From assembly GCA_041737595.1 (NCBI GenBank), contig JBGSRK010000010.1, forward strand, positions 117,375-181,374: a DNA stretch of 64,000 bases, written 5' to 3'. Origin of the DNA: Patescibacteria group bacterium. GTDB taxonomy: Bacteria; Patescibacteriota; CPR2; UBA1875. Shown here in pieces: positions 1-23,430 of the stretch (position 1 is its first letter; every line of letters begins with the position of its first letter). A program made the position numbers and the translations under genes. The notes beneath the pieces are model-generated. The model did no database searches. It saw only the letters and a program-made list of their open reading frames with translations, and was not told where the DNA came from.

Positions 1-877
1 ATAAAAATATTACAGTTTGAATTGATGAAAAACCTAAGTCTAACAAACGATGATGAATGTGTTTTCTATCACCCTCATAAATAGGTTTTCTTGTTATTAA
101 CCTTCTTGCAATCGCAAATAGCGTATCAAATATTGGTATGGCTAGTATTAATATTGGTACAGCAAGAGAAAAAGCTGCTGCAAGTTTAACTGATCCCATA
201 ATAGAAAGCGCAGCAAGTGAAAAGCCTAAAAACATTGAACCCGTATCTCCCATAAATATTCTCGAACGGAAATTATGTGGGAGAAAACCAAGAGCAGAAA
301 ACCCAATAATTAGGGCAAGTACCGCAACAGTAAGTTGACCGTTCAAAAATGCCACAACTGCAATCGTAAAAGCAGATATTGTAGATACACCCGCTGCAAG
401 CCCATCCAAACCATCAATCAGATTTATTGCATTTGTGATACCGATAAGCCAAAAAAATGTTAATGGGAGGGACAATAAATTCATGCTTTGTGGTAAATGC
501 CCTTGGAAAATTGACGCGATATCTATTTGCACTCCAAATGAAATTATAATAATTGCTGCAAGTGATTGAAAAATTAGTTTTGGGATAGCAGAAAGTCCTA
601 AAATATCATCAAAAATCCCAAGAATCACAATTATTGTAGTTGCAATAGCAAAACCTGTTATTTCGGGTGAGGTTCTGTTTAAAAACAAAAAAGCAGCAAT
701 AAAACCTAAAAATATTGCTGCTCCGCCCCCAGACACAGTTGGAGTGGTATGCACTTTTCTAAAATTTGGGATATCTATTGCCCCAATTTTACCAGAAAAC
801 TTTTTTATAAATGGGGTCACAAAATAAGAAACCCCGAAGGCAATTGCTGAAAGTATTAATATTTTTTCAGTACTCAT
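1..877 (-). CDS. Polyprenyl-phosphate phosphosugar transferase, MraY/WecA (GT4) family; partial, 3' end beyond window start
   Basis: Own - strand translation from ATG at about 877: MSTEKILILSAIAFGVSYFVTPFIKKF...NAINLIDGLDGLAAG... It is polytopic and carries the DGLDGLA motif of MraY/WecA. The ORF table misses it because there is no in-window stop. The table ORF 138..338 is its antisense shadow. Confidence 0.7.
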   Translation of the reverse strand, partial: MSTEKILILSAIAFGVSYFVTPFIKKFSGKIGAIDIPNFRKVHTTPTVSGGGAAIFLGFIAAFLFLNRTSPEITGFAIATTIIVILGIFDDILGLSAIPKLIFQSLAAIIIISFGVQIDIASIFQGHLPQSMNLLSLPLTFFWLIGITNAINLIDGLDGLAAGVSTISAFTIAVVAFLNGQLTVAVLALIIGFSALGFLPHNFRSRIFMGDTGSMFLGFSLAALSIMGSVKLAAAFSLAVPILILAIPIFDTLFAIARRLITRKPIYEGDRKHIHHRLLDLGFSSIQTVIFL

Positions 878-964
878 ATAACCACTTGATTATAACAACT
901 ATTATTAATTTTTTGAAGCAAGTTGCTTATAGTCTAATCATTAAACCTTCTATATAATATTAGT

Positions 965-1441
965 GTGAAAAAAATATTATTCGTTACAGGGTCAGGGGGA
1001 CACAGTACAGAATCATTAATACTGTTTGAACAAATAAAAGATAAGTTTGAATTTGAATTTTTATTAGAAAACGACGATCCTTTTACAAAAAAACAAATTA
1101 AAGAACTAAAAATTTACGAAGCAATTACTATTAGAGGTAAGAAAGAAAACTTTCTGTTTACTATATTTAGGGGAATAAAATGTTCTATAGAATCTTTTTT
1201 TGTATTTATAAAATCTAAACCAGATATAATCCTAAGCGCTGGACCAGGTATTGCTATCCCAATATCATACTTAGGCAAGTTGTTTGGGAAAAAAATAATA
1301 TTTATAGAAAGTTGGTCAAGAGTTAACACTAAATCAATTGCTGGCAAATTTATCTACCCAATATCTAATCAATTTTATGTTCAATGGCCAGAAATGACTA
1401 AGATATACAAAAAAGGAATTTATAAGGGGAGGTTGGGATGA
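965..1441 (+). CDS. Alg14-like glycosyltransferase accessory subunit (PssD/EpsE/Cps14F-like)
   Basis: 158 aa with GTG start. N-terminal MKKILFVTGSGGHSTE and its length fit the Alg14 family. It overlaps the following Alg13-like gene by 4 nt. Confidence 0.55.
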   Translation: MKKILFVTGSGGHSTESLILFEQIKDKFEFEFLLENDDPFTKKQIKELKIYEAITIRGKKENFLFTIFRGIKCSIESFFVFIKSKPDIILSAGPGIAIPISYLGKLFGKKIIFIESWSRVNTKSIAGKFIYPISNQFYVQWPEMTKIYKKGIYKGRLG

Positions 1442-1875
1442 TTTTTGTAACCGTTGGGACAACTTCTTTTAATACCTTAATAAAAGCCATTGATGAAACA
1501 AAAATCAATGATAAGGTAATTATCCAAAAATCAGATGGGTCATATCTCCCCAAAAATTATGAATTTTTTGAATATACTAATGAAATAAAAAAATATTATA
1601 GCGAGGCAGAAATAATTATCACTCATGGGGGAGCAGGTTCAATCTTTAAATTAGTTGGTATGGGGAAAAAAGTAATTGGTGTTGCAAATGAAGAAAGAAC
1701 CGACAAGCACCAATCTGATATTTTAAAAAAAATGGCTGATGAGAATTATTTGATTTGGTGTAAAGATTTAACCAAAATAAATGAAGCTATTACCAAAGCA
1801 AAGAAAACAAATTTTAAAAAATACACTCCGCCTGAGTGCAATATAGCTGAATATATAACAGAATTTTTAAACTAA
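1438..1875 (+). CDS. Alg13-like UDP-sugar glycosyltransferase catalytic subunit (GT28 C-terminal domain; PssE/EpsF/Cps14G-like)
   Basis: 145 aa with MIFVTVGTTSFNTLI...ITHGGAGSI, the signature of Glyco_tran_28_C / Alg13. Confidence 0.6.
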   Translation: MIFVTVGTTSFNTLIKAIDETKINDKVIIQKSDGSYLPKNYEFFEYTNEIKKYYSEAEIIITHGGAGSIFKLVGMGKKVIGVANEERTDKHQSDILKKMADENYLIWCKDLTKINEAITKAKKTNFKKYTPPECNIAEYITEFLN

Positions 1876-20774: not shown

Positions 20775-21773
20775 TTACTGACCCTGAGCTTTATATTTTG
20801 CTTCAACCGCGGCCTTAAGTGCTCTCCACCAAGCTTCATTCTCTGTGTACCATTTGATAGTATCCTTGAGACCAGATTCAAAATTTGTAAATTTCGGCTT
20901 CCACCCAAGCTCTTTTCGCAACTTTGAGGAGTCTATGGCATAGCGCATATCGTGTCCCGGGCGATCATTTACGTGATCATAGTCGTCCTTTGATTTACCC
21001 ATCATCTCTAGTATTTTTTCCAGTACTTCTTTGTTATTTTTTTCTCCGTCTGCTCCAATTAAATAAGTCTCTCCAATTTTACCTTTTTCAATAATAGTAA
21101 TTACCGCTGAGTTGTGATCATCTACGTGAATCCAATCGCGTACATTCTCACCAGCACCATAAAGTTTAGGTTTTTCACCCACTAGGATGTTGGTTATTTG
21201 ACGAGGGATAAATTTCTCAATGTGTTGGTAGGGACCATAATTATTAGAGCAGTTGCTGATGGTTGCCTTCACGCCAAAGCTACGTATCCAAGCGCGAACT
21301 AACATGTCAGAGCTAGCCTTAGCACTAGAATATGGGCTTGATGGATTATAAGGGGTACTCTCTGTAAATTTGTTTGGGTCGTCTAGCTCTAAGTCGCCAT
21401 AAACTTCATCTGTTGAAATATGATGCATGCGCTTATCGTGCTTTCGAACCGCCTGAAGAATATTATAGGTTCCAATAATATTCGTATTGATAAAAGGCCA
21501 TTGATCGAGAAGAGAGTTATCATTGTGAGATTCGGCTGCAAAATGAACAATAATATCGTTTTCGCCGACTAACTCATCAACAAGTTGAGAATCGGTGATA
21601 TCACCTTTCACAAATTTAATTTGGTCCATAACCGGCTGAAGATTATCTTTATTCCCGGCATAAGTCAGTTTGTCTAAAACAGTAATTTTGTATTCCGGTC
21701 GATTATCGAGTAGATAATATACAAAGTTTGAGCCTATAAAGCCTGCTCCTCCGGTTACTAATATTTTTTTCAT
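20775..21773 (-). CDS. rfbB: dTDP-glucose 4,6-dehydratase
   Basis: 332 aa with [18 protein letters not shown]...YxxxK SDR motifs. Confidence 0.9.
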
Positions 21774-22498
21774 TATTCCCCCTCTTTATTTTTTGCTTTT
21801 TCAGCCATCAAATTTGAAACACGAAGAAGGGAATCAAAACTGCCTGCATCTTCCCAAATACCTTCGATTATGTTAACTTTTAGAGCTTTATTATCAAGAT
21901 AAATTTTAAAAAGATCAACCATTTCGAGTTCACCTCTTGCTGATGGTTTTAAATTTTTTGCATATTCAACAACACTACAATCGAATGTATATAATCCTAC
22001 GGATGCATAATTTGATTTCGGTTTTTTTGGTTTTTCTTCGATAGAAATTACTTGTTTTTTATCATCAAACTCAATAACACCAAATCTTTCAGGATCATCA
22101 ACGTGTTTAGCATATATTTCGCCACCACCACCAAAATTTTTAATATTTTCAGTAAAATCATGATCCAATATATTGTCTCCAAGAATAAGAGTAACGTTAT
22201 CTTTATCTATGAAGTCTTCACCATAAATAAACGCTTCTGGTAAACCCCCAGGTGTTGCCTGTACAACATAACTAATTCTTGCTCCAACGTCTTTGCCTGT
22301 ACCTAAAAGATTTAGATAATGACCCGCAAACTCTGGAGAAACTATTATAAGTATTTCATTTATCCCCGCTTTAGTCAGGGTTTCTATCGGATAATAAATC
22401 ATCGGCTTGTCATAAACTGGTAATAATTGTTTTGATGTTACCCATGTAAGCGGTCTAAGCCTTGTAGCTTTTCCTCCAGCAAGAATGATGCCTTTCAT
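21773..22498 (-). CDS. rfbA: Glucose-1-phosphate thymidylyltransferase (short form)
   Basis: 241 aa. [41 protein letters not shown] aligns almost residue for residue with RmlA. Confidence 0.85.
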
Positions 22499-22566
22499 AA
22501 AATCTCCTTTTTAATAGTAGATATATTTTAACCTATAGGATTTTTTTGTCAAAAGAGTTACTAAGA

Positions 22567-23430
22567 TTAGCTAATCTCTTTTTCTAAATATTTTTTTAGT
22601 TCATCTTTGAAACCATCGTGTTTTAATGCCATTGAGATGGTTGCCTTTAAAAAACCAAGCTTATCACCTGTATCATAAACTGTCCCTTTGTAATTTTTAC
22701 CCATTAAACCTTCTTTTTTTGCCATTTCAAGCATCGCGTCAGTAAGTTCTATCTCCCCTCTTTCAGAAAAACCAACATCTTCAAGATATTTAAATATTAC
22801 AGGGTCAAATACATATCGCCCAAGGATAGAATAATTTGATGGAGCATCTTTTAGTTTTGGTTTTTCAACTACACCTTTTATCATAAATTCTTCACCTTTT
22901 TCTTTAGGATCAATAATCCCATATAGATGAACCTTTTCATCGGGGACTTCAGATGCTGTTATTGTTGAAATCCCTGTTTTTTCATAATTATCAATTAGGT
23001 CTTTTAAACAATCCGGCCCATTTGCGACTAAAACATCTGGGAGTAACACTGCAAATGGTTCATCTCCGATAATGTCCTTTGCTCTAAGAACTGCGTGCCC
23101 AAGGCCAAGTGGTTCTTTTTGACGAATATAAATAATATTTGCCATCTCTGAGATTGCTTCCATTTCATGAAGTAGTTCTAATTTATTTTTTTTCTTTAAT
23201 GCATCTTCGAGTTCATATGAATGATCAAAATAGTCTTCAATTGCAGATTTACCGCGCCCAGTAATAAAGATGATATCAGTAATACCCGCTTTAACTGCTT
23301 CTTCTACTGCATAATGAATCGCCGGCTTATCAATGATTGGGACCATCTCTTTTGGCATTGATTTTGTGGCTGGTAAAAATCTTGTCCCAAACCCCGCTGC
23401 GGGGATTACTGCTTTTCTAACTTTTTTCAT
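22567..23430 (-). CDS. galU: UTP--glucose-1-phosphate uridylyltransferase
   Basis: 287 aa. KAVIPAAGFGTRFLPATKSMPKEMVPIIDKPAIHYAVEEAVKAGITDIIFITGRGKSAIEDYFD aligns with E. coli GalU. Confidence 0.85.
   Translation of the reverse strand: MKKVRKAVIPAAGFGTRFLPATKSMPKEMVPIIDKPAIHYAVEEAVKAGITDIIFITGRGKSAIEDYFDHSYELEDALKKKNKLELLHEMEAISEMANIIYIRQKEPLGLGHAVLRAKDIIGDEPFAVLLPDVLVANGPDCLKDLIDNYEKTGISTITASEVPDEKVHLYGIIDPKEKGEEFMIKGVVEKPKLKDAPSNYSILGRYVFDPVIFKYLEDVGFSERGEIELTDAMLEMAKKEGLMGKNYKGTVYDTGDKLGFLKATISMALKHDGFKDELKKYLEKEIS

Follow-up and report, generated by a model that had tools for sequence, protein, structure and literature searches.

To what acceptor would a bacterium of a lineage without lipopolysaccharide (LPS) attach a glycan that is exported by an ABC transporter and handled last by a Wzy_C-family membrane protein? 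The question is raised by a glycan locus at positions 1-23430 of a 64,000-nucleotide (nt) stretch of DNA from a Patescibacteria group bacterium of the candidate phyla radiation (CPR; GTDB lineage CPR2, contig JBGSRK010000010.1, positions 117,375 to 181,374), the whole of which is referred to here as the window. An earlier note on this DNA had read the locus as an S-layer-type protein O-glycosylation system, with two adjacent secreted proteins as its candidate substrates. CPR/Patescibacteria spend their lives on host cells, and to such an attached way of life surface glycans and wall-active enzymes are central. The locus is of the type in which a glycan is assembled on undecaprenyl diphosphate (Und-PP) and depends on an ABC transporter. 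The reading that we favour, and to which we give an even chance, is that it is this bacterium's main cell-envelope pathway, making a lipid- or wall-anchored rhamnose glycopolymer, with the two secreted proteins being hydrolases that are glycan-binding clients of the pathway.

Gene content of the locus

From the open reading frames (ORFs) and our own translation, positions 1-23430 form a dense gene block with nearly all genes on the minus strand, in a window of low G+C (about 31%). Pfam, NCBIfam and translation together recovered every gene family that the earlier note had named (WecA-like transferase, GT2/GT4 glycosyltransferases, rfbABCD, galU, Wzm/Wzt and the Wzy_C protein), at the following coordinates (aa, amino acids).

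1-877, minus: WecA/TagO-like polyprenyl-phosphate N-acetylglucosamine (GlcNAc)-1-phosphate transferase (PF00953; first 292 aa, cut by the left window edge)
965-1441, plus: PssD/Cps14F (Alg14-like), membrane-anchoring subunit of a two-part beta-1,4-glycosyltransferase (PF08660, E 3.6e-26; NF041549, 154 bits, cut-off 110)
1438-1875, plus: PssE/Cps14G (Alg13-like), the catalytic subunit (PF04101, E 4.8e-20; NF041548, 170.6 bits, cut-off 120)
1876-2967, minus: GT4 glycosyltransferase directly downstream of Wzy_C (PF00534, E 6e-39; position kept in all related loci)
2995-4245, minus: Wzy_C-family membrane protein, 416 aa, putative en-bloc glycan ligase (PF04932, 40.9 bits, cut-off 31.7)
4235-4633, minus: DUF4330-like single-pass membrane protein, 132 aa (PF14221, E 1e-4)
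4623-5303, minus: WecG/TagA-family glycosyltransferase (PF03808, E 7.4e-39; TIGR00696, 99.6 bits, cut-off 69; TarA, E 6.7e-29)
5307-6308, minus: GT4
6309-7235, minus: GT2, TuaG-like
7225-8169, minus: GT2
8196-9578, plus: GT4-like glycosyltransferase, 460 aa (PF00534, E 9e-11)
9561-10940, minus: GT4
10942-12114, minus: protein with a GT4 N-terminal domain
12111-14090, minus: Wzt ABC-transporter ATPase with an extra GT2-like domain (PF00005, PF13704; TagH/Wzt NCBIfam matches)
14090-14932, minus: Wzm ABC-2 permease (PF01061; NF050109 Wzm/RfbD)
14933-17092, minus: secreted zinc metalloprotease with repeats, 719 aa (PF05548, 38.7 bits, cut-off 21)
17142-19205, minus: secreted lysozyme-like/GH73-like peptidoglycan glycosidase with repeats, 687 aa (no Pfam match)
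19253-20143, minus: rmlD, deoxythymidine diphosphate (dTDP)-L-rhamnose synthesis (PF04321, strong score)
20194-20769, minus: rmlC, dTDP-L-rhamnose synthesis (PF00908, strong score)
20775-21773, minus: rmlB, dTDP-L-rhamnose synthesis (PF16363, strong score)
21773-22498, minus: rmlA, dTDP-L-rhamnose synthesis (PF00483, strong score)
22567-23430, minus: galU, uridine triphosphate (UTP)-glucose-1-phosphate uridylyltransferase (TIGR01099, 355 bits, cut-off 326.8)

The glycosyltransferases amount to six GT4-type and two GT2 proteins, plus the GT2-like domain on Wzt, and six of the GT2/GT4 genes come after tagA (5307-12114). The G+C content of the rml genes (about 38% in the 20-22 kb bin) is higher than that of the glycosyltransferase genes (23-29% over 6000-14000), which is the usual pattern of a conserved sugar-precursor block beside a variable, possibly exchanged, transferase block. 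A scan for promoters and terminators gave counts at chance level and was uninformative on operon structure.

Lineage and envelope type

The RecA encoded in the window is closest, at 72-76% identity, to the RecA proteins of Candidatus Saccharimonadales/Saccharibacteria, and the CPR bacteria studied so far are without lipid A genes (PMC5220378), although a WaaL-like fold and an ABC-dependent, O-antigen-like gene set are what a classical LPS O-antigen locus, with WaaL ligating to lipid A-core, would show. No lpx, kds, lpt, bam or other LPS-core or outer-membrane family was found among the ORFs of the 64-kb window, whose type IV secretion genes are of monoderm type, and the histidine of WaaL is replaced by aspartate in the Wzy_C protein (see below). 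The LPS locus was thus rejected on lineage and gene content and is regarded as extremely improbable, in line with the earlier note, which had seen neither an outer membrane nor an LPS core here. A monoderm-type CPR/Patescibacteria bacterium is supported, in a group whose envelope formation and structure have been described as unclear (PMC5220378). Since the lineage offers no LPS acceptor, a ligase would need an acceptor of another kind.

Initiation, chain extension and export

The WecA/TagO-like gene (best NCBIfam match wecA TIGR02380, E 5.7e-38) encodes the sole initiating enzyme found, a polyprenyl-phosphate N-acetylhexosamine-1-phosphate transferase (PNPT; PF00953). No match to a Bac_transf/PHPT enzyme (one that transfers hexose 1-phosphate to polyisoprenyl phosphate) was obtained in the locus with Pfam. 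For the second step there are two alternative transferases, TagA and PssD/PssE; by family assignment, WecG/TagA enzymes add N-acetylmannosamine (ManNAc) or N-acetylmannosaminuronic acid to GlcNAc-PP-undecaprenol. TagO-like and TagA-like enzymes and an ABC exporter are therefore all present, with matches at the family level and below the equivalog cut-offs. The polyol-phosphate enzymes TagB, TagD and TagF were not found in the locus by Pfam and NCBIfam searches, and the product is therefore not a classical teichoic acid.

These assignments bear directly on the O-glycosylation model, taken here more broadly than in the earlier note, in which Wzy_C is an O-oligosaccharyltransferase (like WsaB, WsfB, PglL or TfpO) that places a rhamnose glycan on Ser/Thr/Tyr of an S-layer protein, of type IV pilins or of the two secreted proteins. 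We consider this model possible but doubtful. The module set is that of the Geobacillus stearothermophilus slg cluster, namely rml, Wzm/Wzt and Wzy_C (PMC2943079), and the lack of an LPS acceptor in CPR (PMC5220378) suits it as well, as does the prediction that saccharibacterial pilins are O-glycosylated (PMC11623550), given a PilB gene at 30507-32120. The S-layer glycans of Geobacillus and Paenibacillus alvei are, however, initiated by the PHPT enzymes WsaP/WsfP (PMC2943079), not by a PNPT-type WecA followed by TagA. TagO and TagA are the linkage enzymes of wall polymers in Firmicutes, and in P. alvei itself they sit in a separate secondary cell-wall polymer locus (PMC6030368). The parallel drawn in the earlier note to the Geobacillus/Paenibacillus pathway is consequently retained for rml, Wzm/Wzt and Wzy_C and is lost for WsaP-type initiation and, as set out below, for the tetratricopeptide repeat (TPR) partner and the S-layer substrate.

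The Wzt protein carries a diverged Wzt_C-like middle domain, its residues 20-397 aligning with the Wzt of a related locus (L086, described below) that carries PF14524 Wzt_C, followed by an extra C-terminal GT2-like domain (about residues 400-659). There is no methyltransferase in the window, unlike the related loci L082, L086 and L087, where a Wzt of the normal Wzt_C type is accompanied by a separate methyltransferase. A glycosyl cap may therefore replace a methyl cap in this system.

A conserved cassette around Wzy_C

Seven loci encoding relatives of the Wzy_C protein were read (L081-L084 and L086-L088). Their core order is WecG/TagA, a DUF4330-like protein of about 130 aa, Wzy_C, a GT4 and then WecA, with a second GT4 or Alg13/Alg14 sometimes inserted between Wzy_C and WecA. 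Two loci depart from it: in L081 the Pfam list places a GT2 gene rather than WecG upstream of the small protein, and in L088 WecG comes after Wzy_C. A PF00953 (WecA) orthologue at the equivalent position and a DUF4330-like gene upstream of Wzy_C are present in all seven. The assignment of the small protein is strengthened by its L081 orthologue, which scores 30.1 bits against PF14221, over the Pfam cut-off; in the window its reading frame shares 11 nt with tagA at one end and 11 nt with wzy_C at the other. A literature search on DUF4330 found nothing, and none of the NCBIfam models was specific to the Wzy_C protein, to the DUF4330-like protein or to the 687-aa protein.

Wzm and a Wzt with Wzt_C lie alongside the cassette in L081, L082, L086 and L087, the four loci with the upstream flank in view, and in the last three of these a methyltransferase is adjacent to Wzm/Wzt. 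Neither Wzx nor Wzz turned up in the locus of the window or in any of its seven relatives. This combination is typical of a chain that is completed, capped and measured in the cytoplasm. A chain completed there does not need a polymerase, and Wzy_C would then most simply be a ligase. An S-layer-type gene was likewise not found in any of the eight loci.

Downstream of WecA, the related loci (7/7) share housekeeping neighbours, namely a gene for DHH/DHHA2 or H+-pyrophosphatase, a small gene that is DUF3006-like and one for a VanW/PG_binding_4 protein, which indicates a stable chromosomal position of the cassette in the lineage. In the window, the corresponding side falls outside the left edge.

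The Wzy_C protein

The AlphaFold model of the Wzy_C protein (predicted local distance difference test, pLDDT, 75; predicted template modelling score, pTM, 0.79) was built on about a dozen close relatives found by a word-based search. Its best structural match was the WaaL O-antigen ligase 7TPG (Foldseek E 2.4e-5, template modelling score 0.54/0.56), there being no Wzy_C-type polymerase structure among the comparisons. A sequence profile of the protein returned nothing meaningful against PDB, and the link to WaaL thus comes from the structure comparison only. A full profile search gave 13313 matches at E <= 0.001, of which 54 were at E <= 1e-30.

The invariant positions of the alignment are S232-R233, R268, D284-G285-R286, P301, G304, G306, G308, T337-D338-N339, G349 and G352, and across 157 family members R182, R233, R268 and R286 are essentially invariant. 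R233 and R286 correspond to R215 and R288 of Escherichia coli WaaL. In the comparison with the K-12 protein, R233 lies in "SRTA" against "TR215AT" and R286 in "DGRIW" against "GAR288LA"; hhalign gave a 22-column, low-probability match around R286/R288, while the equivalences to WaaL R215 and H338 were assigned by local motif inspection. R215, R288 and H338 are functionally important residues common to WaaL and PglL (PMC3643930), and the retention of both arginines is consistent with the binding of a polyprenyl-diphosphate donor. At the third site, D338-N339 occupies the position of WaaL H338-N339, so that aspartate stands in for the canonical histidine. The variant is widespread: aspartate was found in 151 of the 155 best family representatives with a residue at this site and histidine in the other four. 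The named members include proteins of Heliophilum fasciatum and Zhurongbacter thermophilus, and all are annotated just as "O-antigen ligase family".

The earlier note had proposed that the periplasmic-loop motifs would separate a WaaL/WsaB-like protein from a polymerase. The classification was run and, while the WaaL-like arginines are kept, it is not decisive. The conserved set of the Wzy polymerase MagA (R290, P305, G308, G310, H323, N324, G334 and G337; PMC3485256) is matched here by R286, P301, G304, G306, D338, N339, G349 and G352, and because a polymerase has the same residue set the loop motifs cannot distinguish it from a ligase. The shared set is one argument for assigning Wzy_C as a Wzy-type polymerase, or as a WpaA/WpaB-like enzyme joining polymer blocks to GlcNAc-ManNAc linkage units, which an LCP (LytR-CpsA-Psr) enzyme encoded elsewhere would then attach to peptidoglycan. 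It is joined by the Bacillus anthracis model, in which WpaA/B have the proposed role of coupling polymers to linkage units, with LCP transfer as the next step (PMC6030368), and by the presence of both TagA and PssD/E, which could define two lipid-linked species to be joined. We nevertheless judge polymerization or block joining to be improbable. The eight loci lack Wzx and Wzz, the Wzt_C-type exporters and methyltransferases of the relatives indicate full assembly in the cytoplasm, the best structural match is a ligase (within the comparison set given above), and neither the window nor the seven related loci showed an LCP gene.

Among ligases, the features of the protein count against a protein O-oligosaccharyltransferase. 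With its 416 aa it is about as long as TacL (397 aa), RfaL (419 aa) and WaaL (401 aa), which are ligases with lipid acceptors (PMC5727136). WsfB and PglL carry a TPR motif and WsaB has the TPR protein WsaA adjacent to it (PMC2943079), whereas no TPR family match (Pfam, E <= 0.01) was obtained for the Wzy_C protein or the adjacent 132-aa protein. The PglL_A motif (PF15864), which next to Wzy_C defines a PglL-type O-oligosaccharyltransferase (PMC3643930), also gave no Pfam match. TacL has a demonstrated role as a Wzy_C ligase in monoderms, where it transfers Und-PP-linked teichoic acid onto a glycolipid (PMC5727136), and by analogy a TacL-type transfer to a membrane glycolipid is judged the most likely function here.

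The two secreted proteins

The 719-aa and 687-aa proteins both have hydrophobic, signal-like N-termini, and their genes share the strand of the adjoining genes at spacings of 0-49 nt, which makes co-transcription plausible. In the 719-aa protein, a zinc metalloprotease domain of M11/reprolysin-like type bears an HELGH motif, and after it come four repeats, each about 55-60 aa long, at residues 490-719. The 687-aa protein, for which a confident AlphaFold model was obtained (pLDDT 89.5), has a lysozyme/GH73-like domain at about residues 40-230 and then about eight repeats. These resemble the wall-binding domains of PlyCB (from the PlyC endolysin) and of enterococcal phage endolysins, and EccB repeat domains. 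A C-terminal repeat module of 230 aa is common to both proteins (68% identity), and the same repeats are found elsewhere fused to SpoIID and to S11/beta-lactamase-type peptidoglycan enzymes. More than 1500 homologues of the 687-aa protein were found, almost all of them patescibacterial, the named ones being from Patescibacteria, CPR2, WS5, Parcubacteria and Saccharibacteria; the nearest of them (47% identity) is not in a glycan locus.

From their hydrolase domains, their PlyCB/EccB-like repeats and the fact that no Ser/Thr-rich low-complexity linkers stand out in either protein, both look like wall-active hydrolases with a probable wall-binding module and not like structural proteins of the S-layer or adhesin type. 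The earlier description of two large secreted repeat proteins thus holds as to secretion and shared repeats, with an N-terminal hydrolase domain to be added to each. Their proposed role as glycosylated S-layer or adhesin substrates finds no such backing. It is true that both genes lie within the operon and that O-oligosaccharyltransferase genes often adjoin their targets (PMC3643930), but both proteins are absent from all seven related cassettes, and of the Ser/Thr/Tyr-rich sites for which the earlier note had suggested looking, Ser/Thr-rich linkers did not stand out, in a lineage that has no validated sequon. That Wzy_C is an O-oligosaccharyltransferase with these two proteins as its main targets is at the very most a slim prospect.

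In the wall carbohydrates of streptococci, the part that PlyCB binds is their polyrhamnose backbone (bioRxiv 10.1101/2021.03.19.436156). By analogy, it is an attractive idea that the repeats would dock the two enzymes onto the rhamnose polymer of this operon or onto a host rhamnan. Binding of TM7x to its host is inhibited by rhamnose (PMC11623550).

Within the shared module, a stretch of 194 nt is 95% identical at the DNA level (15316-15509 against 17525-17718), while the flanking parts of the module are 71-77% identical. The sequences suggest that gene conversion or a duplication has recently taken place between these paralogues. A third secreted wall-active protein is encoded just beyond the locus, and a regulator gene lies between it and galU.

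23574-23954: TrpR-family regulator
24032-25783, minus: secreted protein with M23 peptidase and fibronectin type III domains and a long C-terminal region

Proposed pathway and its standing

The favoured glycopolymer pathway may be described as follows. With assignments at family level or better, the locus is shown to encode GalU and RmlABCD, which supply uridine diphosphate-glucose and dTDP-L-rhamnose, a WecA/TagO-type enzyme for starting the chain on undecaprenyl phosphate, TagA/WecG and the PssD/PssE pair for the second sugar, about nine GT2/GT4 enzymes for lengthening the chain in the cytoplasm, and a Wzm/Wzt transporter. From this point the steps are proposed ones. Wzm/Wzt would export the finished Und-PP-linked chain. 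Outside the membrane, the WaaL-fold Wzy_C protein, with its DUF4330-like partner, would take the polymer as one block from Und-PP and place it on an acceptor other than LPS. This is most likely a wall linkage unit or, as with TacL and pneumococcal lipoteichoic acid, a membrane glycolipid. What results would be a rhamnose-containing lipoglycan or wall polysaccharide and not primarily a glycoprotein. The shared repeats most likely dock both hydrolases non-covalently on wall polysaccharide, plausibly the rhamnose polymer of the locus itself; both secreted proteins would thus bind the glycan, not carry it. On the basis of rml gene content, earlier work has proposed that Patescibacteria have wall polysaccharides of rhamnose (PMC11809585).

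Several points weigh against this pathway. None of our analyses singled out an acceptor, and no glycolipid-anchor synthase could be named, as the conserved GT4 beside Wzy_C gives weak generic matches (e.g., monoglucosyldiacylglycerol synthase, 53 bits against a cut-off of 400). The LCP result given above leaves attachment to peptidoglycan unsupported, and a literature search pairing LCP with CPR found nothing. The catalytic histidine of the known enzymes (WaaL H338, PglL H349 and MagA H323) is aspartate here, and the chemistry may therefore differ from that of known ligases. The hydrolases could target the cell wall of a host instead, hosts being the presumed targets of patescibacterial lytic enzymes (PMC11665869). 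Finally, there has been speculation that CPR cells are covered by glycosylated S-layers (PMC5220378).

A broader proposal is offered tentatively. The aspartate-type Wzy_C and its DUF4330-like partner may constitute an uncharacterised ligase module for the final attachment of the main CPR envelope glycopolymer, acting as a general protein O-oligosaccharyltransferase for an S-layer or pili or as a lipoglycan ligase, with hydrolases targeted to this polymer or to a host rhamnan via PlyCB-like repeats. If true, this module would give a first mechanistic entry into the construction and decoration of CPR envelopes. Three leads follow from the data: a candidate for a core envelope pathway, in the cassette of TagA, DUF4330-like, aspartate-type Wzy_C, GT4 and WecA, joined by an ABC exporter in the loci with the flank in view; a large subfamily of Wzy_C proteins with aspartate in place of an "essential" histidine; and a widespread patescibacterial repeat module, resembling endolysin wall-binding domains, that is joined to hydrolases.

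Other genes in the window

A monoderm-type type IV secretion system (T4SS) cluster at 50662-58229 resembles the patescibacterial T4SS of the literature and includes the following genes.

50662-51768: TIGR02594-type putative hydrolase
51755-53536: CD1110-family VirB4
54235-54828: PrgI-family protein
54841-56751: 636-aa protein with no family match
57831-58229: T4SS pilin

The PilB gene lies apart from this cluster.

30507-32120: PilB

A four-gene operon at 38969-42770 encodes a group 3b (sulfhydrogenase-like) NiFe hydrogenase, the large subunit (41472-42770) matching HydA/ShyA (E 1e-73 to 1e-75) without reaching the curated cut-offs. The genes yidC, dnaA (45889-47238), dnaN and recF are clustered at 44212-49688, and the window thus probably spans the region of the chromosomal replication origin, the glycan locus being about 22 kb from dnaA. 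A member of the "23S rRNA intervening sequence protein" family (PF05635) is encoded between recA and lexA (60577-60972, minus), although no rRNA gene is present in the window.

Comparison with known systems

The slg clusters of G. stearothermophilus NRS 2004/3a and P. alvei share with this locus rmlABCD, cytoplasmic assembly, Wzm/Wzt, Wzy_C as the last step and the absence of LPS. They differ in using a PHPT galactose-1-phosphate transferase where this locus has the PNPT enzyme WecA/TagO with TagA, in that no S-layer structural gene is linked here, and in the partner of Wzy_C, which here is DUF4330-like, with neither a TPR motif nor a TPR partner. The canonical Wzy_C proteins compared (E. coli WaaL, PglL and MagA) are set apart by their conserved histidine.

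TacL of Streptococcus pneumoniae, compared by size and setting, is likewise a Wzy_C protein of about 400 aa in a monoderm. Its substrate, the phosphocholine teichoic acid of the pneumococcus, is made by the Wzx/Wzy route, whereas export here is by an ABC transporter.

Wall teichoic acid and secondary wall polymer pathways resemble the locus in their TagO-like and TagA-like enzymes and their TagGH/Wzm-Wzt-type exporter. A membrane protein of clan CL0499 has been proposed for the joining of polymer to linkage units in such pathways (WpaA/WpaB), and Wzy_C is comparable to it. TagB/D/F, in contrast, are lacking from the locus, and no LCP gene is in view in the window or the related loci.

The rhamnose polysaccharides of streptococci, lactococci and enterococci (Gac, Rgp and Epa) are similar in rmlABCD, WecA-type initiation, GT2/GT4 enzymes and an ABC exporter; in the Gac and Rgp loci these are represented by rmlABCD, the initiating enzymes GacO/RgpG, rhamnosyltransferase-type GT2/GT4 enzymes and the exporters GacDE/RgpCD. 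The Gac, Rgp and Epa systems depend on LCP ligases, and their rhamnan module is not known to include a Wzy_C ligase, whereas the Wzy_C/DUF4330 pair is conserved and central here.

The ABC-dependent O-antigens O8/O9a of E. coli, with WaaL, correspond in the C-terminal carbohydrate-binding domain of Wzt, in a final enzyme of the WaaL fold and, as far as the relatives of the locus are concerned, in a terminating methyltransferase. They differ in their lipid A-core acceptor, in the histidine that is aspartate here and in the methyltransferase that, in the window, is replaced by a GT2-like domain on Wzt.

The logic of the pathway is thus already known from ABC-dependent glycan systems and overturns no current ideas. 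Its variant features are the CPR setting, the pairing of an aspartate-type Wzy_C with a DUF4330-like protein, the fusion of Wzt to a GT2-like domain, and the presence inside the operon of hydrolases with endolysin-like repeats.

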